Below are positions 34,093 through 63,603 of a stretch of DNA of 64,000 bases, in pieces (the stretch's first letter is position 1; each line of letters begins with the position of its first letter). Source of the DNA: Proteromonas lacertae. Its lineage: Eukaryota. The notes under the pieces are model-generated. The model saw only the letters and a list, made by a program, of their open reading frames with translations. It made no database searches and was not told the origin of the DNA. The stretch spans positions 186,001-250,000 of the forward strand of contig NGBS01000873.1 of NCBI GenBank assembly GCA_002245135.1. Direction: 5' to 3'. The position numbers were made by a program, and so were the translations under genes.

Positions 34093-35248
34093 ATGTCTCG
34101 TAAAGCATCACCAGACGATTTTGGAGTCGACCTACTTGTATAGATGGATGCTTATAATTTGTTTGTAGAGGAATGCTTATAATACATACAAAACTAGTAA
34201 ATTGACTCCATTTCCCGATCTTTACCTCGAAATTGACAGAGAGTGTAACATTTTATTTGAAGAATTATATCGTATACTATTATACCTAATATTGTAGTAA
34301 CAAAATATGAAATTGCTGAATGGCAAGGGTTTTATTTGAGATTATGGGCAAAAAGCGAAGTGGAACTGGATCATGTACTAGCAGAGAATTTTTTAAAAGA
34401 AATCTCTGTTGAGACAGTTCCTCTTTTCCAAAATTATTTTTCAATATCTCGTATATATTCATATTTTTACGTGAAATAGATGGAAAAGTGACAATATCGC
34501 TATTCATAGAGTTTATTTGTGTATTTGCATTCTTTTATAACAAAGATCTTTTAAAATGTATGATTGGAATATTATTTAATCTATAGTAATGTTGTCTATA
34601 TCAAATATACAATCAAACAGATTTGTTAGTGAGAAACAAATATCCTCCTTCTTATCTGACTTAAATGTAGATGATGATCAAATTCACACAGTAGTTCATT
34701 GGGCAAGATCATTGAAGGAGAATCATGATTCACTCATTCATCTAACTACATTTTATCAATACATAATAAGTCATGATTATTTGTTAACAGCTTTAGATAT
34801 TCTTAGAACACAATTATTGAGGTGTATAATAGGACAAGAGTCTTATTATACAATACTAACTAGAAGGAATTATTATAAGAAAATTACCTCAGCAGGAGTA
34901 ACTGTAGCACCTCCCAAAGAGAATTGTTATCAGCATTGTTATAGGACATTAATTAGTGGACGTCCACCTCCTTATTATTATGATTATAAGCCACAGGTTG
35001 TACAAAAGAAGACAGGTCGATGTTTATTGTATATTAGGAAGAGATATGGGTATAGTAATAGGCCAGATAGAGAAAGTAGTAAAAGATCGCTATGCAGTTC
35101 AAGAAAAAACGAATCATATGCATCTCTCAGTTCATATTGTAGTAAGACAATATATTTGAACTCCAAGTCACTTTTGATTAATAAATCATCCTGTAAAGGT
35201 GATGGTAGGATAATAAGTGATGTACCTGGAACTGTGAACTTAGACTAG
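34093..35248 (+). CDS. Tandem family X, copy 1 (unknown; possibly degenerate EF-hand)
   Basis: Shared blocks YEIAEWQGFYLRLW, DGKVTISLFIEFICVF, ISNIQSNRFV, PKENC and PPPYYYDY...IRKRYGYSNRP, then a Ser/basic tail. Confidence 0.75.
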
Positions 35249-35450
35249 ATTGTGTATTTTTATTTAAAGAATTAATGAAGATATATTATGTCATTTAAAT
35301 ACTTCTAGCTTAATTTGTTTATAGTCTTTTGTTTTTATTCTTGTTTTTAGGGAGTATATTCAACCAAATTCAGTTGTTTAGAATAAAACAAGCCAAATCA
35401 TTTTAAAAAACAGGTTTTGTGTAACGAAGTTTATAAATGACCAATGAATA

Positions 35451-36675
35451 ATGAATGAAGATATTATAACTGAATTAGTATACTATTTCTATCATGTTAG
35501 AGTGATGGATGTGAGTATTATGAAACACATCGAGGATCTCGACCTTTTTCTCGTTTGTTGGTTAGATTAGGAGATGAATGTCTTCCATTGTTAGAAAGAC
35601 TATATGGTATGTGTTATTAACATACACAATTATAGTAAATAACTACGAATTATCAGAATGGGAATGGTACTATCTAAAATCATGGTCAGAAGATCCCAAA
35701 AAAACATACATATTATCAGGTCCTTTTCTATATAAATTAGGTATAGGTAATATCCCAATATTGTATAATTTCTTCAGCCCATATAGTATAATATAATTTA
35801 CAATAATAATAATTTAATATTATTAAATAGATGGTCAAATTTCATTGACTTTGTTTATAGAGTTCATTTGTATATTCACATTTTGTTCTGATGAACAATT
35901 GATACCTCTTCTTATATCACTTGGTAATATAAAAAGTAACAGAGTCATTACTGAAACCCAAATTACTCATTTTTTCACTTCACTCCACACACTTCCTGAA
36001 ATAATGGAGAAGATAACGATTTGGTTATTTGATGCTAAGAAAGATGAAAATGGGTTTATATCATTAGATGCGTTTATAAAATATGTTTTATCTGATACAT
36101 CATCGTTTCTAGAACCTATAGCTCATCTTAAATATCAAATAATATCTTGTATCATATCATTAAAGACATACAATAATATACTCTCAAGGATGAAATATTA
36201 TCAAGAAAAATATGGTGATTCTGAGAGAATAATAATTAAAAATGAAACATGTTTAGAATCTATGCAACGGAGGCTGTTTACATCATTTCCACCTCCCTAT
36301 TTTTTTAATTATCGTCCTTCTTTACACACACCCACATTTAGTGAGATAATATGCAATTTTAGAAAGAGATATGGTTATAGTACAAGACCTAGAGGTAATA
36401 GCTCGATGAATTTATCTTCAACTTCAAGATTGAAAAGACCAAGTGCTAGAGAATCTCTTTCATCTTCAATGATTGGAGCAAGTGTAAGTCACTCAGCTAC
36501 TACTCCTAATGGTGCGATTAAGGGTAGTTTTATGAAAAAAATTGCTATGAATAAAGTTGTGCCTGTAACTTATAATGAATCTGTAGATAATTCAATGAAG
36601 ATGAAATCTCTAACAAAGAAACTGAATAGTTCGTTTTTTTCAGATCATAAGACTTTAAATAGTATTTCAACTTGA
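35451..36675 (+). CDS. Tandem family X, copy 2
   Basis: NNYELSEWEWYYLKSWS, LFIEFICIFTF, GNIKSNR and PPPYFFNY...RKRYGYSTRP. Confidence 0.75.
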
Positions 36676-36791
36676 ATAGAGTCATGTAGTATATAATTAT
36701 TTATTTTCTTTTTTTATTTTTAAAATTGGGTATATGAAAAAACTGATTTTTTTTGAAGTTTTGTGGGGAACAAACACTTCAGTTATGCGAA

Positions 36792-37978
36792 ATGCAGAAT
36801 TCAGAAAGCATTTGTAACTATGTATTGAGAAATATTTTATTAATTTCTAGATTAAAGCAAATGAATTTCTGAAAACTCACAAGAAATCAAGACCTTTTAC
36901 ATATTTAGTAATGCCGTTAGATAGTCATGTGCGTCCTTTATTAGAAATTTTGTTTTGTATTGTTATATACCATTAATATTCTCATATAGTAAATAATTAT
37001 GAATTATCAACATGGGAGGGTTATTTTTTGGATATATGGAGTATGCATCCTGAAGGTGAATGTATTACATATCATACACTCATTAAAGCTCTTGGACTAG
37101 AAGATTTGCCTCTTCTAAGTTCCTATTTCTTAGAAAGTAGTATTTTATTTCATTATTATTATTATATAGACGGATATATTTCATTGAGTTTATTTATAGA
37201 ATTTATCTGCACTTTTACGTTTTTTTCAATCAAACAATTAATACCTGTATTACTATCAGTTAATAAAATACAAAGTAATAAATTTTTGACAGAGACTCAA
37301 GCAATAAATTTCTTTAAATCACTAAAATTAACAAAAACATCAATGCAGTTAGTTCAAATCTGGATTAATAGTGTAGAAAGACTTCCAAAGAACTATATAT
37401 CACTACAATCACTCTATAATTTAATCAAAACAAACGAAGGATTGTTATTTCCACTATATAATATAAAAACACATATAATAGATATAGTAATCACCAGAAA
37501 GCAATATAATATAATAAATAATAGAATAGAATATTATCAAAAGAGAAAAGGAAATTATACTATGCCCAAAGAATCGATGTGTGAAAAAATATCCAGAAGA
37601 ATCCGTTCTAATGATCCACCACCTTTTTATTACAGTTATTCTCCAACACTACAAGATATGAAGGTTGATAATTATTTAATTGAAATTAGACGTAAACATG
37701 GTTATAGTAATATATCAGCACGTAGAAGAAGTGTTCATTCTGAAGTGAAAAGAAAGTCGTTATATTCAAATTCACAATCTACAAATAGTAAAATGAAAAT
37801 AATTGGTTCTCCTGTAATTGGTACATACTCTATTAATTTAACATATCGTCAAAAGGCAGGTAGTAATAGTAGTGGTGGTGGTGGTGGTTCTGAATCTTTT
37901 CCACATAGTAAAAGTAATAAATATGTATTACATAATGGTAGAGTAGTTCCTATTAATAAACATAAATCTATGCTTTGA
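36792..37978 (+). CDS. Tandem family X, copy 3
   Basis: NNYELSTWEGYFLDIWS, DGYISLSLFIEFICTF, GLLFPLY, PKESMC and PPPFYYSY...RRKHGYS. Confidence 0.75.
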
Positions 37979-38176
37979 AAGTATAGAATTAGTATTCGTT
38001 TACATTTTTTTAATTATTAAATTTTCTACTTAACCTATATGTTTTTAATATAAATAAATATGTTTGTTAGAATATATAACGTACAACTTTATTACTCTAA
38101 AATTTAACAAATGTAACAAATGTATTGTTCAAAAAATTGATTCGTTTTACATTACATTTTCGGTTATGGATTTGTT

Positions 38177-39476
38177 ATGGATGAGGATGACAGCAAAGAG
38201 CTGCTGGTATATTTTTAAAATTATATTTGCAGGAAAAAGGTTACAGATATTACATTCAACATCACAACAGCAGACCATACTCGTATTTACTAATACCTTT
38301 GGAACCAGACTGCTATCCCTTTCTTAATAGTTTATATTGTATGCTAACATATTAATTTGGATAGTAAATAACTATGAAATATCTGATTGGGAGGAATATT
38401 ATCTGAAACTATGGTCTACAGACACATCTAAGGATTATGTTCATTCCGGTGTAATTATATCAAGCTTAAGTGTAAGTGAGTACCCAATATTTAAGAGTTA
38501 TTTTCGTCCATTCAGTATTACTTACTTTCATTATTTATTTTTTTAGGTAATAAAGTGTCAATAACGTCATTTATAGAATTTGTGTGTATATTTTCTTTTT
38601 TTACAAATGAGCAATTAATCCCATTAATTTTCACACTTAATAACATCCAAAGTAATAGAGTTGCAACTGATGTATATTAATATATATTACTGTTTTAATT
38701 AGCAACAACTATTTATGTTATTTAAATCATTGCTAGTAGAATCGATAGATGCAAATGATATAAGGAAAAATATATTAGAAATACCAAGAGATGCAAACGG
38801 ATTCTTACCTTTGTCAGAAATAACAAATATTTTAAGAGTTAATAGATCCTTGTTACAAGGGATAGAAAAACTTAGAACAGCGTTAATACAAAAAGTGATA
38901 AAGGATGAATATTATTTAACAATCAAACGAAGAATATTTTATTATAGTAATTATCCACCAGATGATGGTTATACAAAACCGAAAGAGTCGTGTTTAATCT
39001 ATTTAACAAGATGATTATTCTCTTTTAGACCTCCTAGTTATTACTATGATCATAGACCTATAAATAGTCATATGCAATTAGATGAGACGTTATTCGTGAT
39101 AAGGAAAAGATATGGTTATAGCTCAAGGCCAGATAGGTATAGTTCAGTTTCCTTATCAGGTAATTATAATAATTCCAGACATAACTCCACAGCTACTAAT
39201 TCTCATGTTTTGAGATCTAGAGTCTCAACAAGTATATTAAATAATTTATCTGTTAAACCTGAAAATCATCGTTCAATTTCTACTACTCTTTTAAACCCCA
39301 AAACCCCAATTAAAAGTAAGTCTATTTATACTGATTCACTTCTCTGTAATGAGAATAATAATAGTAATATAAATCATGAAAGCCTTAATAATAACAATCA
39401 TAGCAGCAAACATGGTAAGTGTAGTCATATATCTGTGAAAATTGTTCCTATTGATGCTATTGATGATCAAGTGTAA
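38177..39476 (+). pseudogene. Tandem family X, copy 4, with one in-frame TGA (39012-39014)
   Basis: PKESCLIYLTR*LFSFRPPSYYYDHRP...IRKRYGYSSRP. ORFs 38715-39014 and 39072-39476 share a frame. Confidence 0.65.
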
Positions 39477-39596
39477 TTATTGTATTTATTAATTAATAAT
39501 ATGCTATTTATTTAACTAAGTAATGTCATTTATAGATGTTTCTTTTATTTGGATGATTTAAAAAAAGAGTCGTTTTGTAACTTATTTTTCAACTTA

Positions 39597-40818
39597 ATGT
39601 CGATTTCATGTGATACAGACGATATTTTAGTTTTAGTATGATTACTTTTATTGTTATTATTATAGGAGAATGCTCTTCACTACTATAAAACTCACAAAAA
39701 ATCTAGGCCTTACCAATTTTTACTGTTAGATGTTGGTGATGAGTGTAAATTGTTATTTGAGTTTTTTTATTGTATAAATCTATTTTCTTCTCTAATTATA
39801 TAATTTTTAGTAAATAATTATGAGATAACTTCTTGGGAAGGGTTTTACTTGAATTTATGGAGTAAAGACAAGTCTAAACCATATATACCTTCTGATTTAT
39901 TCCTAAATTACTTGGGTTTAAACGATATTCCAATTTTGACTCTCTATTTCAATGCGTTTGGTATAATTTTAATATTATAAAATACAAATCATAGGTAATA
40001 AAATTACTGTATCAGTATTTTTACAGTTTCTCATCATATTTACATTTTGTACTAATAACCAAGTTATTTCGTTAATGTTGAATATATGTAATATACACAG
40101 CAATATATTTGTAGATGATGTATTCAATTATATATATATATATAATGAATAGGAACAAGTTCTTTATTTCTGTAAGAATCTATTAGGATCAAAATGTAAT
40201 CTAGCACCATTCAAACAATGGTTAGCTGGAGTAGATAGAATTGAAAATAAAATGATTAAAATATCATCTCTAGTGGAGTTAGTAATGGTTGATCCATTTT
40301 TGAAATTACCTATGATTCAAATTAGAAACAAGTTAATTGAAGGTATAGTAACATACAGTGAATATAAAACAATATTTGATCGCAAAATATACTATGAGCA
40401 TATGAATTATAGTAATCTGAGTTGTAATAAGCATATCGATACGCAGATGAATCACAAAATTGGAGGATGTTATTATTGTTGCTTTTGTTTTAGTAGAGCA
40501 CCTCATCCTCTTTATGTCAATTATATTCCTTTAAATTTGTTTAATTGTGAGGAATGTCTTTTATTTATTAAGCAGAAGTTTGGTTACTCTGTAAGACCTG
40601 TGAATTTCCAATTTTATAAGAATTCAAGTATGAAATACATGTCTGCTGAACATAGAAATTCATCTCGTTCATTTAGATCAAATAAGAATTCTTTAGTTAG
40701 TGCTAAAGTAATCAAGCAAATATCATACAAAAAAAGTAAAGGAGACATACCAAAATACTCTATAAATTTCATTCCACATGTGAAACCTTCTCTTGTTGAT
40801 CAAAACACATCTGTATAA
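39597..40818 (+). CDS. Tandem family X, copy 5
   Basis: NNYEITSWEGFYLNLWS, CNIHSNIFV and APHPLYVNY...KQKFGYSVRP. Confidence 0.72.
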
Positions 40819-41034
40819 GTTTATTTATTGCCCAAATATACATATATATGTATTTAATTATGAAGTATAGTCATTTATATTTATATTGTTTAAACCCTTT
40901 TAATAATGTGTTTATGACTTATTGAGTTGCTAGACTGTTATGTAACATAATAAAATAAGTAGTGAATATTCATCTCGCTGTACTCATAACCAAATAAAAG
41001 AAAATACACAATAATACACAAAGAAATTTAGGAT

Positions 41035-42224
41035 ATGTGTAACGAACTTGATATGGAAGATGTGGATGAGTTGGTATTATTTTTGATTATAATATGTATT
41101 TTTAGAGAGAAGCCTATCAAAGATATATAAGCCATAAAGTGAATCGACAAACTCAATCTCTTCTTGTAGAAGTCTCGTTAGAATGCCAATCTTTTTTCGA
41201 ACTTCTGTTTCGTATATATAATTTTTTGGATATATTTGTCATAGTGAATTATTATGAAGTGTGTGAATGGCAATGGTTTTATTTAAAATTATGGTCTGAA
41301 TCTTCAGAATTACCATATGTGGCTACTACAAAACTACTTAGTAAATTAGAATTATCAGACAGTAGTATTTGTGCCAAGTATTTCTCGATTTATGGTATAA
41401 TTGTTAATTTTATTGTAGATAACAAAGTAACAATGTCAGTGTATATAGAGTTCATATGTCTCTTTGTCTTTTTTGATAAATCTCAACTCACGTCGTGTAT
41501 TTAGATCTCAAAATATAAATCAATAGTGATATTATCAACTGCTAATGTATTAAGCAATTTAATGATCAGCAAGAATCAAATAATGTCATTCTTCTTGATA
41601 ATCGGTGCTAGATCAAGTCAAATCGATACTGTGAAACAATGGATAAAGAATGAAGTAAAAGTTGACAAAAATGGATATGTACAGATGCAAGCATTTGCAG
41701 AATATGTTCACTCTTATCCTGGTCTTTTAGCTCCTTTAGACAAGATAAGAGGTATGTTAATTAAGAATATTGTTGGTGAGAAATTCTACTTTAACATTGT
41801 ACAAAGAAAACATTACTATGAAGAATGTATATTAGTTGGAAGGGATTTAATAGAACCGAAAGAACCTTGTTTTATGATGTTATTCAGAGTGTTATTTACA
41901 AATGAGCCTCATCCTTTTCATTATGACTATAGACCTTATACAGTACATAAGACATACGAAGAATGCTTAGCTGTTGTTAGAAAAAGGTATGGATACAGCA
42001 ATAGACCTGTTAGAGAAATAGCTGTAAGTATAAGTTCAAATTCAGGATCTTTCCACCAGAATCTAAATTCATCAAGATCTAGATTTTATAGTAGTAGTAA
42101 CAGTTCAGTAATGCATTTAGTTGACAAGAAACATCATTCAATAAATTCTTCTAGACACAAAAACAGTAACTTGTCAAAAGTATTTAAATCTAATAGAGTA
42201 GGAGATGGCTTTTTATTTGAGTAA
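41035..42224 (+). CDS. Tandem family X, copy 6
   Basis: NYYEVCEWQWFYLKLWS, YIEFICLFVFF, PGLLAPL, PKEPC and EPHPFHYDY...RKRYGYSNRP. Confidence 0.75.
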
Positions 42225-42488: not shown

Positions 42489-45400
42489 TTATCTATCCTT
42501 ATCATCAGGATATCCTTTCTTCATCTTATCAGGACTAACATGTTTAATAATCAATTTCCTAGCTGATTTCTTCTGCATCATTCCATATGGTAAACTATAA
42601 GCCTTCATTAACAATTGAGCTTCACCTTTTTTCAACACAGGAACAGCATAAGGAGATGGTCTAACTTTTGGTTTACTTCTAATCACATTAATTGGCTTTG
42701 ATTTGTTGTTCAATATTTCTCTCACTTCTTCATCAACATCATCATCATCATAATAGGTATTTCTATCATTAAGATATCCATTATAAATAGCAGTATTGTT
42801 ATTATTACTGTTAATATATTTATTATTGTTGTTATTAGATGGATTAATATTACCATAATAATTCAATAACGGAGATGAACCATTTTGATTCTCAGAGATA
42901 ATCAAATTGCCAATTCTTTGGTGTCTTAATGGTAAATCAGCTGCATCAATCATCTCATATTGATTCACAAAACTACTGGATTTAGGTGATATTGAATTCT
43001 CATCATGATTATAGATTGGTGATACTTTGTTATTGATTAACACTTTGGGAGGAATACTAGTATTATTATCGTTAGTATGTAATTGTATTTGAGGAGCTGG
43101 TCGTGGTGGAAATTGTGGTTGAGGTGGTGGAGTATCAACTTGTTGTTGTTGTAGTTGTAATGTTGGTAAATATTGAGGTAATGGTGGAGTAAATTCTTGT
43201 TGAACAGGTTGATATTGTTTTACATATTGAGGTGAGTTAAATTGCTTATCTTGTTGTTGTTGCTGTTGTTGTTGATTTCCTTGTTCTACTTCAGCTTCTT
43301 CGTCTATTTGTTGTTGTTCTTCTTCTTTCAAGAATCGTGGTTGTTGTTGGACATACTGTGGCTTATATTCCTGAAGAGTACTACTACTGCTATTTGGTTT
43401 CTGCTGTTCTTGTTGTTTTCTTCTTGCCATTCTACTTTGTACATTAATTGGTGATAAATCTCTCAACTTATTGTTATTATTATCATCTGGAGCACTTTTT
43501 GAGCTTGTAACTGATGGAATTCCATTCAAATTTTCTTCATAATTATAATTATTATACTTTTCATTATCATATGGATCTGCAGTTTCGTTACTATTATTCT
43601 CTAAATCCTCTTTACTTATAAAATAAGGACAAAGTAATGGTAATTGAGCATTATCATTCTCCTCTTCAGATTCAGATTCACCATCTCCATTCTTTGATTT
43701 CTTATTCTTTTTCAAATTTATCCTCTTTCGAAGTGGTCTAAAATCATCACCTAATTCTTCAGCTTTAGCAATATCCACTTTCTTTGAACATGGCATAAAT
43801 GGTGGTTGTTGCTGTTGCTGTTGCTGTTGATTTGCACCATTTCGTTTAATATTTTCTGATGATATTCTTTTTCCTTTCAAAAGTGATACTTTCTTTGGAC
43901 TGTCATTCACTGTTGTTGGTGGAATAACATCTTGGAATTGTTTGAATAAATTTTTAAAGTATTTCACTGAAAATCCGTCCTGTGGTGCTATAAATTTCAA
44001 ATCTTCTAAAGGTAAATAATATCCTAACATTAATAGCAAACTATATATTTCATTAAGTATCAATGTTTGTTGATTGTATATATTAAGAAACTCAAATACA
44101 GCTTCAGGACTATTATATATTATATATAAAATAATATTATATTCATACGATTTAAACATTCCTTTATCTTTAAGATCAAACAACATTTTGAATAATTTAT
44201 ATCTAATTTTATCTTTACGTTTTTCAATATCTGATGGGAATGATAAATAAGTGGTCACTATAAATGGCAATGACATTCTTCCTAATTTTGTATAATCCAT
44301 TCTATCAAATAAATAAGCACAATCTGAGGGTGTTATTGGTGATTTGATTCTCTTTACAAATAAATCTACAAACTTTGCTGCTGTAACTATCGGAGATCTT
44401 GTTATTGCAGATTGAATAACAGTTATTGGATTTAGACTATATAACAAAAAATATTTATTATATAGGATTTATATACTTAAATGATGCTTCATCTTTCTTT
44501 ATATATTTAAACAATGTTTTGAATATATCCATAAATGGATCATCCATTCGTTCTGGTAATAATCGAATCAGTAATTCAGGATTGAATTTTCTCTTAGATA
44601 ATGAATATTCTGTAACAAAATATAATTGAGAAGGTGTTAATTGAATATTATTATCAATTAAAAACTCTCTACAATATAATAATATATATTTATATATACT
44701 CGAGTGTATCTGGTAAGCATTTATATTTATGTTGATAATTAAACACAAATATTCTAAACAACATCAAATTCATCTCATTACTATTGGTAAATTTCTTTTG
44801 AAATAAAACTTTCAAATTACTAAAGTGTTCTGATAATAAAACTTTGGATGGTAATTGTGAATATACAATTGGTTGGTCATCAGGTGTTTCTGTTCTTAAT
44901 GGTGAAGGTGGTAAATTAATAACGCTATTCATCTGAGTAAATGGACTGATTCTATCCATTACTGTATGAAAACCTGCTGATTTTGGCTTTACTGGTTTAT
45001 TATTATCACTATTATTCGCTTGATCTGGTGATAGAACGAAGGGACTTAGTCTTTGTACCATTTGTTGTGCTGGTTGGCCTTCTCTTTCTCCTTCTAATGG
45101 CTGTTGTTGTTGTTGTTGTAATAATAATAATTCCTGTTTCTTTTTCTCTTTTTCTGCTTTTCTTTGTTTTCTTTTTTCAATTTTCTCAGCTTTTTTCTTC
45201 TCTAATTCTTCTCTGGCAAGTTTTACATCTTTTACTTTGGATTGTTTTTGTTTAGGAATTGGTGATATTTTATTATTTTTACCTTTTTGTTTCTTAGCAT
45301 TATTAACATCCATTGTAACAAATCTCTTTGGTCTAATATTCTTATTCTTATTACCTGCAGAAGTATCAATCGTTTGAAATTCCAATGGTCTTGGATCTTC

Positions 45401-50148: not shown

Positions 50149-51321
50149 TTAATGAATAACATCACCAATTTCATTTGCTTTTCTTTGATCAATCATATTA
50201 ATTGAAAAATTATATATCAAATGTGAGGTACTATGGGTGAAAATACTACCTTTCTTTATAGGTATTCCAGATTTCTCTACATTTCTAAATATTCTATTAG
50301 CATTCGATAATCTTGAACTATTTCTAGATACAACACTAGTACATCTATGTGCATATCCAAATTTTTGTCTTAAAGCAACTATTACTGAATCCCTTGATTT
50401 TTCAACTGCTTCTCTAACATAATAATCACATTTATAAGGAGGTGGGCAATGAATAAATAATACTCTGTAAATATGTTTACAACATGGTTCTGGTGGTGTG
50501 ATAGTTGTATATCCATATGAATAATAAAACGATATTCTTTTCTGAATTAAATTATATAAATAACTACCTAATGTTAAATTAATAAGCGATTCTCTAAATG
50601 AATATAATCTATTCACAAAACTAGTTTCGCTGGTTAGAAAATCAATTAAAGATCTTACTGAAAAACAATTTGGTTTGCATTCTCCGCTATATGTATATAT
50701 AGAACAAATGTATTGTATATATAATATACTCAGCTTCAAACTGATTAGTTCTAATTGCATCAGGTAAGTCTTCATAAGCTTCTAGAGGAAGTAAATAAGA
50801 TTCAAAAAAGGACTGTAACTGCATGACATTGACAAATAAATTACTATAAATACCTGACATACTCAACAAAACTAATATTATATTAGATGATTTAAAAAAA
50901 AGAAACAGACAAACGAACAAAATGTAATCTGAAACATATATTTTATCTTCTGGGAAAAACAATTTAATAAAACCATGATGTTCAGGAGCTATTTTCATTT
51001 GTAGCAGTGATAATGGGACATAAGGTAAAGATGTATCTCGATTCCACAAAAGAAGGTATGTACTCTCTATTGCATTTATTTTAAATTTATTCACTATTAT
51101 ATATAAAATCATTGTGAATAATACAAAACAGAGTCAAAGCCATTAATTGTACATTATGATCTATAGGTACATACAACACTTTTGATGAGTCAGTTTCGTA
51201 TGTTTCCATGATTTTATATCCATCTTTCTATTAAATATGCTATTATAATTTAAATTACTAGAGAGTAGAGTATATCATCGGATTCTGGGCTTGATCGTGG
51301 AGACACAGACGCTTTTTTCAT
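50149..51321 (-). CDS. Tandem family X, copy 7
   Basis: NKFKINAIESTYLLLW, YILFVCLFLFF, SGIYSNLFV, PPEPC and PPPYKCDY...RQKFGY. Confidence 0.72.
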
Positions 51322-51736: not shown

Positions 51737-52886
51737 TTAATCTTTTTCTTCTTCATCATCTAACAATTCTTGAGTGGAAGCCAAAATACCAAAACCAACT
51801 TGTGTATTTTTTCGATTAACTTTAGGTGTTAATGGAGCTTGTGATAATCTTTTATTTCTTCCAGTGCTAGAAGCCGTAGAAAGTCTACCAAACGACTTAT
51901 GAGATGCCAATGACTTACTACATCTACTAGATCGTATGTCATGTCCATATCCTTTCTTGATTCCACAAATCATATCATCAAACGATTGACTACTTGGATT
52001 TGGCAGTCCATAATCATATCTATAAGGTGGAGGAGCTTGTGTAAATAGCATTCTATTTAACTTTGAACAAAATGGTTCAGAAGGAGGAGGATTACCAGGC
52101 AATGAATAGAAAAACTTAATTCTTTGGATTATATTTATATACTGTTGCAAAGAAAATATTTGCTTAATCAATTCTTCTTTGAATCCATTCAAAAATGCTT
52201 GAAATGGTTTTGATTCGTTCATAAATGTAGTGAAATCTTTCAAAACAAAAGCGTCTTTTCTGCCTGTTAAATCTTTATCTGCAGTACTTTGAAGTAATTT
52301 CAATAAATCATTCTTTATACCAATATTATCTAGGTCAAACTTTCTAAAAAAATCAAAAACTTGAGGTTTAGTTATAAATAAGTTACTATAAACTTGACTG
52401 ATTGATAACAACACGATTAAAATACGATTCTCTTCGAAAAACGTAAATAAACTAACAAATATTAAGAAATCGTCATAATAAACAATATCTAACTTCATTA
52501 AAATAATAAGTAATATACTGTCACTAAAATAGGATTGTATTAGCTTACTATATTTAGGTGAGAACATAAGTGCCAACTTAGAAGCTGATATATTATCCTT
52601 TCTATTATCTTCATACCATATTCTCAGGTAATATCCTAAAATTAAATTCACATCATAATTATTATCTGGTTAGATATAATAAAAATGTATAAATACAGTA
52701 TAGAGTATGAGCCATTAACAAAGATGTCTTATGTAAAGCCATGTATGGATTTTTCTTCCCCACTGCACTATTTGCCACCATATTGATATGTCCAAATTTC
52801 TAAATCTTGTTAAAAATACCTATAAATACTAATAATTCTGACTCATCTTCATGGGGAGGTAACTGTGGTAATGGAACCTTAGACAT
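51737..52886 (-). CDS. Tandem family X, copy 8
   Basis: YYLRIW, FLIFVSLFTFF, SQVYSNLFIT, PSEPFC and APPPYRYDY...KKGYG. Confidence 0.72.
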
Positions 52887-53061: not shown

Positions 53062-54313
53062 TTACTTCTTCTTCATACCAGCCTGCATTTGAGATGCATC
53101 CTGGCTAGGTTTCACACAAATCACACTTTTAGAATTAACTAAATTAAGCAACGAGTTTGTTCTTCTTGACATACTTCGATTATTAGAACTAATCTTGTTC
53201 TTATATCTGGATGACATCATTGCTTCTTTTGCTATAGAAGAAGACCTTAAATCAGGTCCAATATTCTGCCTCACTAACAAAACCATTGTATCAAAGGAAC
53301 GATCGTTAGCATACCTCAAAGAAAAATCATAATGGAAAGGAGCCGGTTCATTAGTGAATAATTTCCTAAATATTTTACTACATATCGGCTCTGGTGGTAT
53401 TTTGATATTATGTGTTGGAGTAACACTGTTGTTCATGCTGTCAGTGCTAAAACTTGCACTTATTCTACTTTTATTTCTAGTCATATTATTACTAGTTTGA
53501 TTATTACAATATGTATGGTAAAAAATGTATATTTTTTTCTTTATTGTTGTGAATATTTTCTGTGTCATGGAAGTATGTATGATGATATATTGAAAAGAGA
53601 ATAAAAATCCACTGAAATGTAAGGAATGTTCAAAATATCCTACAAAATCTTTAATAAAGTAAGAATCATGAGGAAGAGTTGTTGAACTACCGCTTGCCTC
53701 CTTTAATACTGATATTAAATCATGATATGGCTCTTCAGATAGATTATAACATCTAAAGAAATCATTGATTTGAGACTATATACAATAATTAATATTTATA
53801 CTCTTGTTATAAAAACATTACTGTATATATGAGATACAGATAGCATCACTTGGATAATTTGAGGTGTTTGAAAAAACAAAAATGTACAGACGAATAAGAA
53901 ATATTGATCATAGGTTATACCTTCTATAAAATATGATTCTAATATGATATACTATCAATAAAAAAGGATCGCACAATTCCATGATAGGTATTAGGATATA
54001 TTTGAAGGTATTGGAACTAAAGGAATAGCAGAAGAAGAAGGATTTTGTTGCCACATCTCTAGATATTTTGATAAAATCTTATTCACTTCATAATAATTTA
54101 CTATGGATTATTTAAACTATCAATACGGTATAAAGTATCTGCCATTTGTTGAGAGACTAAAGACAGAGGTAATAAAACTGATTTATTGATTGAATAATGT
54201 CGACGAATCTCCAACGCTGCTTCACTCTATTTTATGTCATATATCAACAATACAAGCATAGTGATTGGGACTGTGTCAATACTTTCAGGAGAACCAACTG
54301 AATTGCTAGACAT
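53062..54313 (-). CDS. Tandem family X, copy 9
   Basis: NYYEVNKILSKYLEMW, SHIYSNVFIT, PPEPIC and EPAPFHYDF. Confidence 0.72.
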
Positions 54314-54666: not shown

Positions 54667-56566
54667 ATGGCTGAATATCTTAATGATATTCAACAATTAA
54701 GGTGTCTAGCTGTAGTTATAGTGATTTTATTTCATTTGAATCTATGTGAAACAGGTTTTAGAGGAGTAGATATATTTTTCGTAATATCTGGGTTTATTTT
54801 AACCAACCAGCTGATTCATCGACCAGCCACATCTATTAATAATGTATTATCATTCTGGTTAGTAAGATCAAGAAGAATAATTCCTGCAGCATACATAATT
54901 TTAGTAATTTTTGTTTTATATTTTATCAATCTAGCGCATATAGAACATCCAGAATTATATCTATCGGAATTCAAAAGTGCAGTTAATTTCTACTCAAATT
55001 TTCACTATTACTATATGAACAATGATTATTTCCATCCAAGTAGCAACTCAGTTTTTCTAAATTTTTGGTCATTATCAACTGAAATGCAATATTATATATT
55101 TTTCCCAATAATCATCATAAATAATTACATTATTATAGTTGTGTTTATTTTGTCATTTATTATATATCAATATTATTACTCAGTAGATACAAGTTACAAT
55201 TATTATTCAATGATACCAAGAATATGGGAATTTCTATTTGGAACAATAATTCATCAAGTTTTCGTTTTATTTTAATCAAAAGAAAACGAATAATATTGAT
55301 ATAACAAACACATTTATAAAATATGCTTTTTTCATGTCGTTATTTGTATTGTCTTTTTTTAATACAACTTATTTATTTTCTAGAATAGATAATTTAATTA
55401 CAATGGTTTTGACATCATATTATATCTCTTTTATTCCTCATTTTTTAAACTCATATATATTGGAACATATTGGTGATTTATCTTATATTATTTATTTAAT
55501 CCATTTTCCATTAAAATTTATAATTGTTGATGATTATTCTTTGTATTTTATATTACTGTATATCTCAAGTGCTGTAGTATATTATTTGTATGAAAAACCT
55601 ATACTTTATTATTTAAAGAAAATCTCTAGTCTGAAATGTGCTATTGCAATGTTTTTAATGATAATTTGTTGTAATATTCTCTGTAATGTTTATGAATTGC
55701 AAATAATAAAGAGAAATGAAGAGATGTTGAATGAATTTGATCAATCAAATAACAATGTCACATTTATATATATTCCAGAAGAATTGAATAATTATTGTTG
55801 TTTTAAACCATTAAAAGACTTGGAAGATAGTAATAATAAAGAAATTCATCCAGTATTATTTGTAGGAGATTCACATGCGCTTCGATATATAGGAGCAATT
55901 CGATCATATGTATCATATCTTAAACAACCATTTTATTTCAAATATATTAATACATTCTACATAATACGAAATATGTCAGAATATCTCTATGATGTTGATG
56001 AAAGTTTTGATATTATTTTATTATCGAATTTATATATGAAAAATGATATGGGTAATAATGATGCTATGTTTGTGAATGAAATAAGTAAATATATTCTCTA
56101 TCTTATGAATTACTGTAATAAAATGATATTCTTCAAACCAACTCCTGTTTTAGATAGATTAGTGTTGTGTCAAGATGCTAGAAAGTATAAATATGCAATA
56201 GAACCATATAATATAACAATGGCTCATCAAGAATATACTTTAATTCAAAATAACCCAAATATAATAACCATTGACTTTAAAAATTTCTATTGTCAAAATA
56301 AACATAATAATTACACATGTAATTTAACCTATTATAATAATAAACATAATGAAGAAGGTTGTATTTATTTTGATCAACATCACATTGATATGCAGTTTAT
56401 AGAATATCATATGGATTATGTATTGAATATATTCAAACCATTATATCATATGAAAGGTAATTTCATTCAAAAATGTATGTATTATTATTATAAGAATAAG
56501 ATGTATGAAAAATGGCATTTAGATGATAAAGGGTGTAATATAATTAATTTAAAAGATAATGTTTAG
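54667..56566 (+). CDS. Acyltransferase-3 (AT3) plus SGNH domain O-acetyltransferase, OafA/OatA-like; intronless, with a 1-nt frameshift near 55260
   Basis: DIQQLRCLAVVIVILFH, GFRGVDIFFVISGF, RSRRIIPA, FWSLSTEMQYY, PRIWEFLFG and IGDLSYIIYLIHFP. SGNH motifs FVGDSHA and YFDQHHI. The +1 frame is open from 55262 into ORF 55334. Confidence 0.88.
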
Positions 56567-56697
56567 TATTCTTTACATACACATATTATTATTTTATTTA
56601 AATTAAACAACACAAAATAGAATAAAATAAATAAAAACACATAAATATGTTAGGATATATCTGAGTTATCAAGACATCTTCTTGTTCTGTCCTGTCC

Positions 56698-58025
56698 TTA
56701 TCCTGTCTTTGTCCTTTGTAACTCAGGTTCACTTGGATTTAATGCATAAACAGTTGCATGTGTTATTGATCGTTTATATTTTTCACTACAGTAAATTCTA
56801 TTCTTCTTCAATTTTTCATCAATATTCAACACTGTTTTAGTCATGTAATCTTTAGGTAAAGAAATCTCTTCTGATGATGAAGAAGTATAGCAACTTGAAG
56901 TCATTAATAAATGTCTTCTACAATATCCATACCTTTTTCTTATTTCTGTTACTATTGGATCTAAATAAACACAAGAACTAATATCATTATTACAGAATCT
57001 CATTATTCTGTAATCAGAACGATTTGGATCTGGTTTATGAGTTATCAATTTTCTTCTCATATATTTACAACAATTTTCTCTTGGAATTTTTAACATTATA
57101 TTCACATTTGCCATATAATATATTTTTATTCTTTTTAATATTACTACATAGTCTTCTTCAGTTATTATATTCTTCACAAACTTTTGTTTCCATGCTCTTA
57201 TTGTATTATATAAAGATGGAGCACTTTGAAAAAGAAATGAAATTTCAGTGCAAGGAATAAATTGTGAGTCTTCACTGTTAAAAATATAATATTATATATA
57301 TATATACTGTTGTAATAACCATCTGATTATTATTAAATCATAGTCATCTTCTTTTATTATACTATTTATAAACTCCAGCGATTGTTCATAAGTAATATTC
57401 AGATTTGATTGAATTCCGCATACTGATAATAAAACTATCCATATTATATATAATAATAATAATAATAATATATCAAATACTTCGAATCAGCTTGTCAAAA
57501 GATACAAATACAATTAAACAGATCATCTGTAAAAATACATTGATTGTCACTTTGTCTTCTATATATTTTTAGATTATTATCATTCATACGATAGATTTGG
57601 AAGAAATTTTTAAAAATCAAACTATAGCTAAGATCAAAATCATTAAATAACTCACCAGCTAATATGTATGGATGTTCCATATTCTTAGACCATATTTCTA
57701 AATACTGCTCTTGCCATCTTGAAATATCGTAATAATTTACTAGATATTATACAAATATATATCATACAGCATAGGGCATTCGCTAAATCAACGATTATTT
57801 TATCACAATTCAATATCGGTTGTTTGTTCTTTTGACAAAAATTTCTTAATCTATACAACTTCAAGGCACTTTTCTATAACAAAATATAAAAATATATACC
57901 ATGGTAGCTATCTGTTCTTGTTCATCCATAGCATCATAAAAATTTGTTACGGTTGCTGATATGTAGATGTTATGTTTGAGAACAGGTTTGGCTTGTAGGA
58001 TGTGATTTGGAAGAATTTCATTCAT
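56698..58025 (-). CDS. Tandem family X, copy 10
   Basis: NYYDISRWQEQYLEIWS, CGIQSNLNIT, IPRENCC and PDPNRSDY...IRKRYGYCRR. Confidence 0.72.
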
Positions 58026-58319
58026 TCCATATTTCTAAAAAAAGAAATAATACAATAATTATAACTCTTTTTCGTTGAGTACAAAATAAAGTATTTATTT
58101 TTAAATTATTATTTATGACATACATATTTCTTTTAGATTTTACAATTCAGAAGTATATATTTATTGTATTAATACGAAATGTATAAAAATAGCATCACTG
58201 CATTCAATTTTTTTCTTTCATGTTTTTGCATCAAGCCTGTTCGAACTAATTGATTTATTCTATTAAATTCTATTAGTTCATAATCTTCAATGGTGACATG
58301 TTGCTGAAATAACGATACT

Positions 58320-58780
58320 ATGGCGCTTCTTTTGCCTAAACAAGTTTACAGATTTTGAATGTTCTTTTGTAGCTGATGGGGATAATCAGAAGCTAATTAC
58401 TCATATGGTAAGTTTTCAATATACTCATTTATAATAGATGAAAAGTTAATTGAATTTCAGCAGAAAGACTATTAAAAAGGTCTATTATACCAGCTGAATG
58501 ATTTATCTGTGAAATTTGCACTATATTTGTCTTGTATACTTTTTATATTATCTATATAAAAAGTAACAAACTATTAAGTTGTTGAATGGCAAAGAAAATA
58601 TTTAGAGATATGGTATAAATGCCTAATTGAGCCTTATATACATTGTTCTGATTTTTTAGAAGCAATGTATTGTAAATATACACCTCTTATAAGAGTATTC
58701 TGCGAAGGATTTGGTATATTTTATTATTATATACACTTCAATATAGAACTAGACGAATTAATAAGAAGTATCAATAGAAG
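58320..58780 (+). pseudogene. Truncated, inverted remnant of family X (N-terminal part)
   Basis: ~58570-58712 reads NY*VVEWQRKYLEIWYKCLIEPYIHCSDFLEAMYCKYTPLIRVFCEGF, matching the NYYDISRWQEQYLEIW block, with an in-frame TAA. I found no C-terminal half. Confidence 0.65.
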
Positions 58781-58914
58781 AAACCACACAGTTTTTCAAA
58801 ACATTAAATGAGTTTTATTATTTAGATCCAATATTGAATAAATAACTAGACGAACAGTATAATTAAATATGTTAAAATATATATACTAGCAATGAAGATA
58901 ACCTCATACAAATA

Positions 58915-59585
58915 TCCTGTTCTTATCCTTTGTAACTCAGGTTCATTTGGAATTTAATGCATAAACAGTTGCATGTGTTATTGATCGTTTATATTTTTCA
59001 TCAATATTCAACACTGTTTTAGTCATATAATCTTTAGGTAAAAAATCTCTTCTCTTCAAACCAACTCCTGTTTTAGATAGATTAGTGTTGTGTCAAGATG
59101 CTAGAAAGTATAAATTTGCAATAGAACCATATAATATAACAATGGCTCATCAAGAATATACTTTAATTCAAAATAACCCAAATATAATAACCATTGACTT
59201 TAAAAATTTCTATTGTCAAAATAAACATAATAATTACACATGTAATTTAACCTATAATAATAATAATAAACATAATGAAGAAGGTTGTATTTATTTTGAT
59301 CAACATCACATTGATATGCAGTTTATAGAATATCATATGGATTATGTATTGAATATATTCAAACCATTATATCATATGAAAGGTAATTTCATTCAAAAAT
59401 GTATGTATTATTATTATAAGAATAAGATGTATGAAAAATGGCATTTAGATGATAAAGGGTGTAATATAATTAATTTAAAAGATAATGTTTAGTGTTCTTT
59501 ACATACACATATTATTATTTTATTTAAATTAAACAACACAAAATAGGATAAAATAAATAAAAACACATAAATATGTTAGGATATA
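58915..59585 (+). repeat. Permuted duplicate of 56132-56872 (3' end of the AT3-SGNH gene and 3' end of family X copy 10)
   Basis: ~59055-59585 is nearly identical to ~56132-56659. ~58915-59054 matches ~56690-56872 with internal deletions. Confidence 0.9.
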
Positions 59586-59663
59586 GGTAAATTATACTTT
59601 TGAAAAAGAAAAAACTAAAGAGCCACTTCATATTTCTTAATACTTCCTTTATAATCAGTTGCT

Positions 59664-60802
59664 TTATATTGATGGACAGGAGAGTTTGTAACAGGAGAAG
59701 TACTGTAATGGAGAGATAGGCACTGTAGCACCAGGTAGATTAATGGAACATATTGCATTGCCAGCTACTCTAATAGATCTGTTGATAGTTCTCTTATTAA
59801 TATCACCTCCATTAGATGCTCTTTTCATTGAATTTCTACTGATCGATCTTGTAGAAACACTAGATGCTCTTCTATCTACTTCAGCACCAAATCGTTTTAC
59901 CACAACTCTAATAAACCCACTGAATGATGCTTCAGATGGATCTATTGTACTATAATCAAATCTGTAAGGTTCTGGTTGATTTGAAAATAACGTTCTCATC
60001 ATTTTATCTATGCAAGATTCTTCTTTTTTCAATATATTTTTTTCATTATAATAATACTCTATTTTACATTTTATAGTTCTGTACAGATCATAATTAAGTC
60101 CAACTTTTATACAATTTTTCCGAAAATCAGCAATAAATTCAATAAATTTTCTTTGTTTTTCAAAATAACTTATGAACTTTTTAATTGAAAATGAGTCTTC
60201 TGGAGCATTTAAATTAGGTTCTGTTATTTCCGTTATAATGTCATTATAATCACCACTGCTTAAATGATAAGTTTGAAAAAAATGATTCAATTGTTGTCTA
60301 CTAATGAATAAATGACTAAATATCTTATCCATTCGCAATAAAAGACTGATTACTTTGGATAAGTCCAAAAACACAAATATACAAATGAATTGAAAATATA
60401 AATCATACGTCACATCAGCTATTCCATTATATATTACATTAATATAAAATACAATTCTGAAAAAATATACTTACTATTGGCAGGAACCGATCTTCAAACT
60501 TTAAACTAAGATTATAAAGTGGAATTGACATTTTTGATTGTTCACAATACCATAAATCCAAATATGATTTCATGATTATATTTATCTCATATCTGTTCAA
60601 AAATAGCGTTTGAGCAGCTATTTCGCCTATGCTATCTAGTGGAAGAAATAAATCATAGGGATTTGTATTTCCTTTCTCTTTCATTATGCGGTATGCTTTA
60701 GACTATATAATATAAACATATGAACAATATAACACAATATACTAATGAAACTTGAACTAACACATTAACATCATCCTTTTCACTTGTATTAAAAGATATC
60801 AT
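59664..60802 (-). CDS. Tandem family X, copy 11
   Basis: NRYEINIIMKSYLDLW, YFQFICIFVF, KIFSHLFIS, EESC and QPEPYRFDY...KRFG. Confidence 0.72.
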
Positions 60803-60977
60803 CTCATTTTAATTATTTGTGTCTTAGCTGCACTAATTTCTTTAAAAATAACTACAAATAAAACGGATATATTCTTATAACTCAAAAAATAAAAAATCAA
60901 AAAAACAGCATTACAATATACAATTCATTAAATAAACTAATATCATTATATAAATTACAGGATAATATGTACATATA

Positions 60978-62133
60978 TTACAGAGGACTAACAGGATGGC
61001 CATTATACGGAACAATTTTACTGGATTTCAAATTTAAGTTAATACTCATCTCAGTTTTTGTTCTGGAACATCCACTACTTGCATTACTAGATGATTTCAC
61101 TCTATTAGAACGACAAGAAGAAGTCAATCTTCGATGATTACAGGACGAAGACAAACAAACTAGTGAATTGTTTTTCTCATCAAACATATGTTTAATTGCC
61201 ATAACAGCTCTGTCATAACCTCCATCTAATTGGTCATTATCGATAAAATAGTCAAAACGGTAAGGAGGAGGTGAATTTGTGATTAACAAACGAATTAACA
61301 ACGACACACATGATTCTTTGGGTGGAATAACTTTATTAATCCCATGTTCATAGTAAAACTTAATTCTTTTATTGATTGCATTATAAACTATTCTAGGTAG
61401 TGCAAATTTGAGTATATCTTCTTTTAGACTATTTATAAAATCCAAAAACTTGGTAGATTCTTGTATAACTCGACTGAATAGTTTTAATGAGTAATGTCTT
61501 CTGGATGTTCTTGGCGTTGCTTTCTCACTATTGTTATGACTTTCTAATATGTCAAATAACTTTGGGAAATCATTCTCTGTGAAATTATACGATTGAAAGA
61601 ATATCAATATTTGACTCTATTTTGTTATATTTAATGGTGTTATTAATACTTTGGTGATAAATAGTTTACTTATCACTTTGGCCATTGAAATCATTAAACT
61701 CATCAGTTGTGGAGGTGAGAAAAATAAAAATGAACAAACAAATATGAAATACTGTCGATGTGTAATTTCATCTACAATTACAATTACATATTATACTGCC
61801 TTTGTCAAAAAACAATTTCAATAAAGAGAAATGGTTGTTAGATATATGAGTCATTACTATTCTTATCGGCAGCGAAACGCCTGTTCCATAATGATACCAT
61901 TCTCTCAAATAGAAACTGTTGATGAGATTAATCTCATAATTTGTCAGTAGAAATGTCTCTGCTAAAATTCTATGTTCAGGATACAAAGGTAGATATAACA
62001 AATATGGTTTGGATGTACCATTCTTTATATATAAGTTATGGCCATTGGACTATAGAATGTAAATAAAATTACAACAAAATACAAGATAATCGACAGCATT
62101 TTCTTCTATCATGCCACTTTCACATTTATGCAT
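60978..62133 (-). CDS. Tandem family X, copy 12
   Basis: TNYEINLINSFYLREW, PPKESC and SPPPYRFDY. Confidence 0.72.
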
Positions 62134-62306
62134 CTTCTATATCATTAAAAAATGAATTTAAAAAATTCAGTTATAAAAAACTCAAATCAAGCTCTTTGAT
62201 ATTTTTTCATTTTAGATTATTAAGCAAAACACAGCAGTATATATGTACTTATATTGAAAATCATAATTTATAAATATTTAATAATCTATACAACTAACGA
62301 TATACA

Positions 62307-63603
62307 TTATTCGATATTTTTCTCAGATTCTTCTTCTGGTGCGATTTTGTTCTTCGAAATGTTTCTATTGGGGAAAAAATGCTTGTTACTGCTGCATTTA
62401 TGTTTAGTACTAACTGCATGACCAGAAAATGGATTATTTAAAGATTGTAATTGTGGGTTAATTGCAGGATAGCCACAACTCCTTGACGGTTTAGCTCTAA
62501 ATCTCTGAAAACTTCCAAAACCACTTCTATTGCCAGATAACGCCGATCTTTCTGATTTATCACTCTTCATACTATACTTTGCATTATCATCTCTAAATGA
62601 ACTTTTTCTACATGAATACCCAAATACTTGTCTAATCAAATACAGCATATCATCAAATGCTTTTTCACAATTTGTTAATGTGTAATAATCATAGTGGTAT
62701 GGAGCTGGCCTTGCAGTAAAACACTTTCTTAATATTCTACCTAAACATGATTCTTTAGGAACCCTTAGCTTCTTTAGATCATCAATACTATTATGATCAT
62801 AGAAAAACTTCATTCTGTTTTTAATAATTTCATAACTATCTTGTTTCATTGTTAAATCTATCAGGAAATCTCTATATGTATGCAAGAATTTATTAAAATC
62901 AGGAGATTCTTGGAAGTAAGTGAGAAAATCTTTCATATAATACATTTGATCTGGACAATTACTCTCTTCGGCTGATTTTTTTAATACTTTTAATAAATCA
63001 CTATATTTCTCTTTATCTAAATAGTAAGTAGCAAAGAAATCATTTACTTGTTTCTAATCAATATGAGATTTATACTATATATATACCCTTGATATAAATA
63101 TATTGCTAAATATTTGACTCATCGATAGTAGTAACAATAGAAGATGTTTTGTATTGAAAAAAACGAAACAACACACCATTATAAAGAAATCTTCATACAT
63201 TACATCAGCTATAGTATTATATGATAATATAAATATACATTCTTTGAAAAACATTTTTACTATTCCTCTATTTTCTGTTGGAAATAGTTCAATCAGCCTT
63301 GGAAGTGGTATGAAGTAATTTCTGGGTTCTAATGACCATAGTCTTAAATAAGGCTCATGTATCATATTTATTTCATAATTGTTCACTATAAATATATATA
63401 ATTATCAGATATACAAAACAAAAGTTCAGCCATATGATATGACGTAACTGCTAAAGGTAAAAAAGTGCCATTTTCTTTACATGCAGTCTTTTTAAATTCT
63501 TCATATGCTTTGTTCTAGTGATTATAAACCATATGGTTAATACTAAAATCAGCTGTAAATTAGTCTCCAGCACAAGTGCCTCTGCATCCGATGTATGGGA
63601 CAT
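62307..63603 (-). CDS. Tandem family X, copy 13
   Basis: NNYEINMIHEPYLRLWS, SQIFSNIFIS, PKESC and RPAPYHYDY...IRQVFGYS. Confidence 0.75.

Follow-up and report, generated by a model that had tools for sequence, protein, structure and literature searches.

Two convergent arrays of a divergent gene family with a predicted EF-hand fold and degenerate calcium loops

Two convergent arrays of divergent genes

A stretch of 64,000 nucleotides from Proteromonas lacertae (assembly GCA_002245135.1, contig NGBS01000873.1, positions 186,001 to 250,000 of the forward strand; hereafter the window) carries 13 copies of a gene family. Six copies lie on the plus strand (34,093-42,224) and seven on the minus strand (50,149-63,603) in two convergent arrays, as the initial annotation of this stretch had described; between the arrays lie two unrelated genes. 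The copies measure 1,139-1,300 nt (346-394 codons), in agreement with the 1.2-1.3 kb given earlier, and within the plus array they are separated by 116-216 nt. Pairwise protein identity is 17-35%, and at the DNA level almost no similarity between copies is left. Open reading frames are intact in 11 of the 13 copies of the assembly, and the earlier statement that the copies had all been kept open fails for copies 4 and 9. Apart from the 13 and a decayed 14th fragment, no copy was detected when the window was searched with a profile in all six frames, and Rfam gave no matches. The window itself is eukaryotic, with genes for Rab, derlin, importin-5-like, sestrin, REV1 and GH18 chitinase proteins, has a G+C content of 27% and uses ordinary stop codons.

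The copies were modelled by a splice-aware search and then corrected by hand against the alignment. The 46 introns of these predicted splice models are short and of the GT-AG type (23-46 nt, median 30), and 45 of them start with GTAT, a donor that the splice scoring favoured. As proposed earlier, the 5' introns are shared in column and phase: intron 1 (phase 0) occupies one alignment column in 13/13 copies, intron 2 (phase 1) a common column in 11/13 and intron 3 (phase 1) in 12/13. In intron size, ordinary stops and low G+C the window resembles Blastocystis, whose human subtypes have introns of 30 nt; in tortoise isolates the introns are longer and vary more in size, the G+C content is 21-23% and the stops are canonical (PMC12129017, PMC5608401). 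The copies are listed below with their subfamily (A or B, see next section) and their orthologues among the proteins of relatives (P numbers).

Copy 1, 34093..35248, plus strand: subfamily A, 346 aa, 4 introns, open; orthologue P0063 (76%).
Copy 2, 35451..36675, plus strand: subfamily A, 375 aa, 3 introns, open; KVVP in the tail; orthologues P0050 (72%) and P0010 (62%).
Copy 3, 36792..37978, plus strand: subfamily A, 364 aa, 3 introns, open; RVVP 7 residues before the end; orthologues P0001-P0003 (70-79%).
Copy 4, 38177..39476, plus strand: subfamily A, 394 codons; in-frame TGA at codon 241 (39,012-39,014), within a conserved Cys-led helix.
Copy 5, 39597..40818, plus strand: subfamily A, 361 aa, open; the most derived C-terminal module.
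Copy 6, 41035..42224, plus strand: subfamily A, 356 aa, open; orthologue P0030 (70%).
Copy 7, 50149..51321, minus strand: subfamily B, 355 aa, open; orthologues P0070 (71%) and P0099 (64%).
Copy 8, 51737..52886, minus strand: subfamily B, 352 aa, open; orthologue P0048 (65%).
Copy 9, 53062..54313, minus strand: subfamily B, about 380 codons; +1 frameshift near codon 83 (one extra base, 54,011-54,014).
Copy 10, 56698..57929, minus strand: subfamily A despite its place in the minus array, 355 aa, 5 introns, open.
Decayed 14th copy, approximately 58565..58713, plus strand: exon for the first EF-hand, of subfamily A type, with an in-frame stop; profile E 3.8e-06.
Copy 11, 59664..60802, minus strand: subfamily B, 354 aa, 2 introns, open; orthologue P0029 (67%).
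Copy 12, 60978..62133, minus strand: subfamily B, 354 aa, open; KIVP 8 residues before the end; orthologue P0004 (72%).
Copy 13, 62307..63603, minus strand: subfamily B, 391 aa, open; KIAP 8 residues before the end; orthologues P0052 (62%) and P0386 (65%).

The copy 4 orthologue (P0093) is open across the position of the TGA, which is either a nonsense allele or an assembly error. A 39-nt intron that would skip this stop (38,990-39,028) was rejected: its donor is GTGT, as against GTAT in 45 of the 46 introns, and its removal would take out the conserved Cys-led helix that the orthologue keeps. Likewise, the frameshift of copy 9, whose orthologue P0005 (62%) covers the C-terminal half only, marks either a broken allele or an assembly error; since the acyltransferase gene beside it is frameshifted too, some of the breaks may be errors of the assembly. 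At the junction with the acyltransferase gene, copy 10 stops about 23 residues short of its orthologue, which ends in KIIP. The translation of the decayed 14th copy matched P0037, copy 5 and copy 10 in BLASTP, and for copy 5 no close orthologue was found among the relatives' proteins compared.

Two subfamilies and their sequence blocks

Copies 1-6 and 10 form subfamily A and copies 7-9 and 11-13 subfamily B, a split with a support of 100/98. It recurs with a support of 99 (72 versus 67 rows) in a quick tree of 139 rows, from which rows covering fewer than 110 profile columns of the C-terminal half were left out; this tree is star-like, with end branches of about one change per site. Subfamily A is marked by a Trp two residues past YE[IL], a 16-residue linker between the first and second EF-hand loops (EF1 and EF2) and a D-x-N-G-like fourth loop (EF4), and subfamily B by N-x-I at the position of the Trp, a linker of 14-15 residues and an EF4 of the form Y-x-L-K-x-F. 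The minus-array copies may group on one side of a branch (support 91/88). The family would have grown by tandem duplication within A and B, after which the paralogues would have been retained with separate specificities.

The sequence blocks by which the family was initially described belong mainly to subfamily A. Relaxed forms are present in 11-13 of the 13 copies and the exact forms in a minority: N-x-YE[IL] in 6/13, W-x3-YL-x-LW in 4/13, F-x-EF[IV]C-x-F-x-FF in 3/13, PKE-x-C in 5/13, PPPY in 6/13, RKRYGY in 5/13 and GLLFPLY in 1/13. PPPY was considered as a WW-domain ligand and judged unlikely to be one, being exact in only six copies and lying inside the confidently folded core.

Relatives and family size

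With copy 3 as the query, a word search returned three proteins at 70-79% identity and an alignment search five. A HMMER profile built from 30 pieces matched 343 protein clusters at E<=0.001, of which 218 reached 1e-10 and 38 reached 1e-30. The relatives examined are the best 150 of these 343 clusters, and the 193 weaker clusters may include named proteins; 30 of the 154 relative proteins were looked up, and all were without a name and present in Logan only. No Pfam cut-off was passed by any of 14 window pieces or 149 relatives (best EF-hand_7, 19.6 bits against a cut-off of 30), which agrees with the initial view of an unrecognised family. Two scans of Joint Genome Institute metagenome contigs gave 342 and 43 pattern matches, none of which was confirmed as a relative.

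One-to-one orthologues were identified for 12 of the 13 copies (17 proteins, 53-78% identity by BLASTP), and the orthologues of these 12 copies are open. Identity between copy and orthologue is 55-84% in the core and 45-77% in the tail. The paralogues are therefore older than the split from the relatives, in keeping with the old expansion first proposed from their divergence, and each has been kept, including its tail. Longest contigs of equal size recur between orthologue clusters, namely 13,339 for copies 1 and 4, 2,796 for copies 7 and 8, and 16,497 and 13,214 for copies 11 and 12. Moreover, the cluster of P0011, which is the orthologue of no copy, has contig sizes (16,497, 16,469 and 13,210) that are also found in the copy 11 cluster. 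These coincidences are indirect evidence that the arrays are conserved in relatives, with further members. Given that 17 of the 154 hits stand for 12 genes, and provided that the other hits come from equally close relatives, we infer roughly 100 paralogues; the number per genome would be lower if hits stem from more distant species.

A literature search covering listings and the openings of abstracts found no description of the family. The main texts of two Blastocystis genome papers mention EF-hands once (Miro) in one case and not in the other, and a table of calcium proteins of Blastocystis subtype 1 has calmodulin present and calcineurin absent (PMC5608401, supplement file 31); other supplements of PMC5608401 and PMC12129017 could list the family as an unnamed orthogroup.

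Predicted fold

Two structures were predicted with AlphaFold2. The core of copy 3 (36,992-37,711, 240 residues, read through one 30-nt in-frame intron; 124 alignment rows) was modelled with a predicted local distance difference test score (pLDDT) of 93.8 and a predicted template modelling score (pTM) of 0.89, and the intron-free relative P0006 with a pLDDT of 87.9 and a pTM of 0.83, its tail being disordered (below 50). Both models show a helix-strand-helix pattern four times. In a VIA-align comparison of the copy 3 model with 48,161 chains, the best match was AtCBL2 (Z 8.7, root-mean-square deviation 3.7, 160 residues aligned), followed by calaxin (8.1, 3.8, 157), CIB2 (7.7, 4.4, 153) and GCAP3 (7.5), and the lower rows were nearly all EF-hand proteins; for P0006 the order was AtCBL2 (8.5), CIB2 (7.9), calaxin (7.6), calcineurin (7.1) and NCS-1 (7.1). 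The top matches span model residues 1-173 of copy 3 and 10-190 of P0006. The leading Foldseek matches of one model were calaxin, GCAP1, CIB1 and calcineurin B; those of the other were KChIP1, recoverin, hippocalcin and CHP1.

Independently of the models, a comparison of the sequence profile with the PDB gave 20 matches, all weak, of which 19 were NCS proteins. The first match in the ESM Atlas, whose neighbours are unnamed stramenopile EF-hand clusters (oomycete, diatom), was an oomycete cluster with EF-hand_6 on 13% of its members (score 0.91, 171 features in common). Each of these lines is of moderate weight, but they agree in predicting a fold of the calcineurin-B/CBL/NCS/CIB superfamily, in which four EF-hands form two paired lobes and a tail helix comes after them. 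The initial guess of an EF-hand protein is thus borne out over the first 170-190 residues or so by two independent models, and the proposal that GLLFPLY forms the tail helix fits structure matches that include a tail helix with LLFPL.

The linker between EF2 and EF3 is 24 residues long in 13/13 copies and that between EF1 and EF2 14-16 residues in 13/13, counting 12-residue loops. All sides of the EF2 exit helix are hydrophobic (mean 1.16, moment 0.23).

Degenerate calcium loops

Loops were anchored on position 8 and called canonical with D1, D/N3, D/N/S5 and E/D12; the register of EF2 is approximate because its loops are shortened. None of the 52 loops in the window has all four ligands, which confirms the degeneracy suspected at first, and the best, EF4 of copy 4, has three. 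In the 124-row alignment, three ligands occur in 0/51, 1/65, 1/113 and 3/101 loops of EF1 to EF4 (5/330) and four in none, and an EF-hand pattern matched 0/13 copies and 0/154 relatives. Among the segments singled out earlier as loops, KDENGFISLDAF and DKNGYVQMQAF are real and correspond to the fourth loops of copies 2 and 6, and DGKVTISLFIEF occurs in none of the 13 spliced proteins since its Asp had been read across an intron end (in copy 1 the spliced codon is His).

The most conserved loop is EF3, with the consensus S-N-x-x-I-T/S-x-x-Q (S4 88%, N5 87%, I8 74%, T/S9 79%, Q12 82%). It has no acidic ligand: position 1 is G/N/K, position 3 Y/H/Q and position 12 Q, and in the HMMER alignment this Gln falls on Glu12 of hippocalcin-like 1. 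A change from Glu to Gln at position 12 impaired the calcium response and kinase binding of TvCBL1 (PMC4990929). With a constant EF2-EF3 linker and the ligands absent, the geometry has been kept and the chemistry lost, and we infer from the sequences that the family proteins are probably calcium-independent.

C-terminal module and tail

The tail helix is followed by a C-terminal module (C-module) of about 70 residues that comprises Y-x-x-I-x-x-R..YY, P-x-E-x-C, a helix with Arg in 96%, P-x-P-Y-x-x-D-Y and a helix ending in R-x-x-Y-G-Y. The alignments to solved structures do not cover it, and searched alone it had no significant match in Pfam (best E 0.014) or among PDB sequences (best E 0.47). 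In the models the C-module is predicted to pack on the EF-hand domain; a rough mutual-information scan for its contacts gave no clear ones. In 92 of 100 rows the middle helix of the C-module begins with a Cys, and this basic, amphipathic helix (motif E-x-C-x-x-K-L-x-R-x-L-F) has a net charge of +1.8 and a hydrophobic moment of 0.50. Gly2 occurs in none of the 13 copies and a single Cys within the first 15 residues in 5/13, the start codons being predicted. In the alignment, the second exon of the family was placed onto the C-module (Y..Y, P and a Cys-led helix ending in LF), which hints that the C-module weakly resembles the N-terminal segment but may be an alignment artefact.

The tail has a median of 68 residues and is made up of Ser/Thr (27%), Lys/Arg (17%) and Asp/Glu (6%). 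The motif K/R-[IV]-x-P is enriched in it: it occurs in 54 of 129 relatives' tails, compared with a mean of 7.7 and a maximum of 19 in 1,000 shuffles, and lies within the last 25 residues in 49/129 relatives versus 0/120 REV1 homologues. It is equally present in A and B, at a median of 8 residues from the end, with Ile in 63% and Val in 37%, and in the window it is carried by 5/13 copies versus 0.68 after shuffling. For TGTTTGTT the count was 12 against 6.7 expected, a value reached by 1 of 100 shuffles and a weak hint at most. The end motif, the A/B split, the two broken copies and the larger size of the family in relatives had all been missing from the initial annotation.

Neighbouring genes and rearrangements

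Further features of the window, within and outside the arrays, are as follows.

3,738-8,380, minus strand: very long protein that carries numerous IQ motifs and two ANCHR-like B-boxes, by its type a possible partner of EF-hand proteins.
8,724-10,179, plus strand: tandem pair of Rab-like GTPase genes, ending in CC.
18,491-19,807, plus strand: gene with a Sestrin (PA26) domain (E 1.5e-24).
20,039-21,595, minus strand: kinase domain followed by leucine-rich repeats.
23,128-27,900, minus strand: GH18 chitinase (E 1.3e-88) after PT repeats, an EGF-like segment and Cys-rich CGDG repeats; the stretch contains internally duplicated segments that are 66-69% identical.
42,492-47,190, minus strand: long Gln/Asn/Glu-rich gene without a Pfam match; conserved-looking short N-terminal exon, helical segment near 43,900-44,760.
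47,303-49,900, minus strand: REV1 translesion polymerase gene (BRCT, IMS, UBM) between the arrays; best homologues at 47%, in scattered taxa.
54,571-56,563, plus strand: OatA/OafA-like gene combining Acyltransferase-3 with SGNH (Pfam E 1e-09 and 4.9e-04); it lies between copies 9 and 10, shows no evident intron and is frameshifted near 55,260.
56,130-56,872 and 58,913-59,585: a 533-nt block duplicated at 98.7%, which holds the acyltransferase 3' end and adjoins a gapped copy, at 77%, of the 3' end of copy 10.

The acyltransferase gene encodes a bacterial-type domain pair and was possibly acquired horizontally. The partial duplication of its 3' end is recent and is either a real rearrangement or an uncollapsed haplotype.

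Discussion

Comparison with known EF-hand systems

AtCBL2 (PDB 1uhn) is the best structure match of both models (Z 8.7 and 8.5 over about 160 residues), and CBLs and the family models have in common four EF-hands in one globule and a tail helix. Nevertheless, the family departs from CBLs in several respects: it has no canonical loop, and it adds the C-module and the tail. CBLs have an EF1 loop of 14 residues with Ser at X, or in stramenopiles of 15 residues with Leu at X and a Q-H/N-E motif, and a spacer of 19-24 residues between EF1 and EF2 (PMC4990929); no such pattern is seen in EF1 of the family, whose spacer is 14-16 residues in 13/13 copies. The N-terminal lipid signal of CBLs (myristoylation or S-acylation) is not found, as Gly2 is absent from every copy. 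CBLs bind CIPK kinases through the NAF domain of the kinase. Outside plants, CBLs are mostly single genes, with nine at most in the survey of PMC4990929.

NCS proteins and calaxin (5x9a) match the family models with Z values of 7.1-8.1, and CIB1-3, CHP1/2 and calcineurin B, which share the predicted fold, with values of 6.4-7.9. In NCS proteins the loops are 12 residues long with Asp as X, and the calcium sites function; the family is without these features, and some 19 of the NCS residues between the EF1 and EF2 loops are missing here. Membership of the NCS and calcineurin B groups is defined by Asp1 and Glu12 in at least two EF-hands, and none of the 52 window loops or the 330 aligned loops is canonical. 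CIB, CHP and calcineurin B sit tightly, as subunits, on a helix of the channel, exchanger or enzyme that they serve, and at least two of their loops still bind metal. They occur in few copies and have no equivalent of the C-module. Calaxin, a calcium-binding protein, also has no myristoyl signal; it was found in opisthokonts only and acts on axonemal outer-arm dynein (PMC4415241). Its likeness to the family is a structure match at only 9-13% identity, and the family loops are degenerate. The family might work like CBL, CIB, CHP or KChIP subunits and yet falls outside CBLs, NCS proteins and calcineurin B.

The K/R-[IV]-x-P near the C-terminus matches in sequence the (K/R/Q)VxPx ciliary sorting motif of polycystin-1 and rhodopsin, which is said to bind Arf4 (PMC3172256). 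It differs in that Ile outnumbers Val and that the model shows no transmembrane segment in the protein carrying it, and in a Blastocystis-like host there would be no cilium (PMC12129017).

Possible functions

Proteins of this fold clasp a helix of a kinase, channel or exchanger. Starting from the observed copy number, gene structure, loss of canonical loop residues, per-copy conservation in relatives and K-[IV]-x-P enrichment, we tentatively read the family as calcium-independent adaptor subunits derived from the CBL/NCS/CIB fold, anchored by the Cys-led helix and the tail, with phosphorylation as their switch and K-[IV]-x-P as their address, a combination about which considerable doubt remains. 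A constitutive adaptor role appears most likely because the loops are dead but the scaffold and the sequence of each copy are conserved. Each paralogue would hold a helix of its own target protein at the membrane, and, by analogy with CBL-CIPK, CIB2-TMC1, CHP-NHE1, KChIP-Kv4 and calcineurin B, this helix may lie in a hydrophobic groove. As far as sequence anatomy suggests, the Cys-led basic amphipathic helix and the polybasic tail would stand in for the N-myristoyl anchor that is absent, the switch would be phosphorylation of the Ser-rich tail in place of calcium, and K-[IV]-x-P may act as a sorting or docking signal.

Several observations weigh against such adaptors. The Foldseek E-values all exceed 0.001 (best 5.0e-03), Z values of about 8.5 are near the 7-8 typical of unexplained models, the PDB profile matches have E-values of only 0.095-3.3, and the ESM Atlas score for P0006 is only 0.86. 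An EF1-EF2 linker of 14-16 residues, compared with 19-24 in non-plant CBLs (PMC4990929), implies that the N-terminal lobe, groove included, may have been remodelled. The Cys-led helix, which the model places with confidence (pLDDT 96), may be buried rather than serve as a lipid anchor, and K/R-[IV]-x-P is present in only 5/13 window copies. Finally, the hydrophobic EF2 exit helix fits equally well a groove for a partner and a groove filled by the protein's own C-module.

In the latter arrangement the C-module would serve as a pseudo-target for the groove of its own protein. Each protein would then be rigid, need no partner and act by way of its tail and outer surface, perhaps as a scaffold of a structural or cortical kind. 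We regard this as unlikely, although a pTM of 0.89 over 240 residues gives the C-module a rigid position against the EF-hand domain, the C-module residues I175, R178, E194, R202, P209, P211 and G237 are among the most conserved, and the EF2 exit helix is hydrophobic on all faces. The tail helix of CBLs and calaxin normally borders the groove, and it is to this helix that the alignments assign LLFPL (model range to 171-190); the one-to-one retention of 12/13 very different paralogues is also easier to understand through separate partners. It is rather improbable, in our view, that the proteins are unusual sensors with a non-canonical calcium or magnesium site, in the fixed EF3 loop or in EF4 of subfamily A. 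EF3 does keep N5, I8, T/S9 and its length, EF4 of copies 2, 4 and 6 keeps D-x-N-G, and EF1 of CBLs binds calcium through an aberrant, non-canonical loop (PMC4990929), a precedent that makes sequence alone insufficient to exclude calcium binding and so tells against calcium-independent adaptors as well; but EF3 has no acidic ligand, the EF2 loops are shortened and EF4 is not conserved family-wide.

More improbable still would be a pairing of A and B proteins as heterodimers, with combinatorial complexes built from the two paralogue arrays. The subfamilies are equal in number (7 and 6 in the window, 65 and 64 among the relatives covering the C-module) and carry fixed differences at surface and core positions, but equal numbers are also expected from arrays growing at similar rates, and A and B are one fold end to end (probability 100%). 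The two broken copies of 13, the decayed 14th and the 533-nt block duplicated nearby at 98.7% would fit arrays that consist mostly of duplicates without a function or that arose as an assembly artefact. Against this stand the identities of only 17-35%, the near absence of DNA similarity, the 11 open copies and the 12 copies with open orthologues at 53-84% whose clusters have contigs of equal size in common, and this explanation, by far the least probable, is already largely refuted.

Taken to its full extent, the preferred reading of calcium-independent adaptors would give a gut protist lineage about a hundred calcium-blind adaptors in two balanced, possibly pairing subfamilies, with a new C-terminal membrane module, a phospho-switched tail and a cilium-independent K-I-x-P address, a picture that we hold to be doubtful. 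If true, it would be a large system for signalling or for organising the surface, overlooked because the family matches no profile library. According to PMC12129017, Blastocystis has lost many signalling genes. In a Blastocystis-like genome, at least 13 and probably about 100 pseudo-EF-hand proteins, each conserved in its own right, would amount to a large system without annotation. The paralogues would also offer a natural series for what the EF-hand fold does after calcium binding has been lost, and a test of whether the K/R-V-x-P signal functions outside ciliary sorting.

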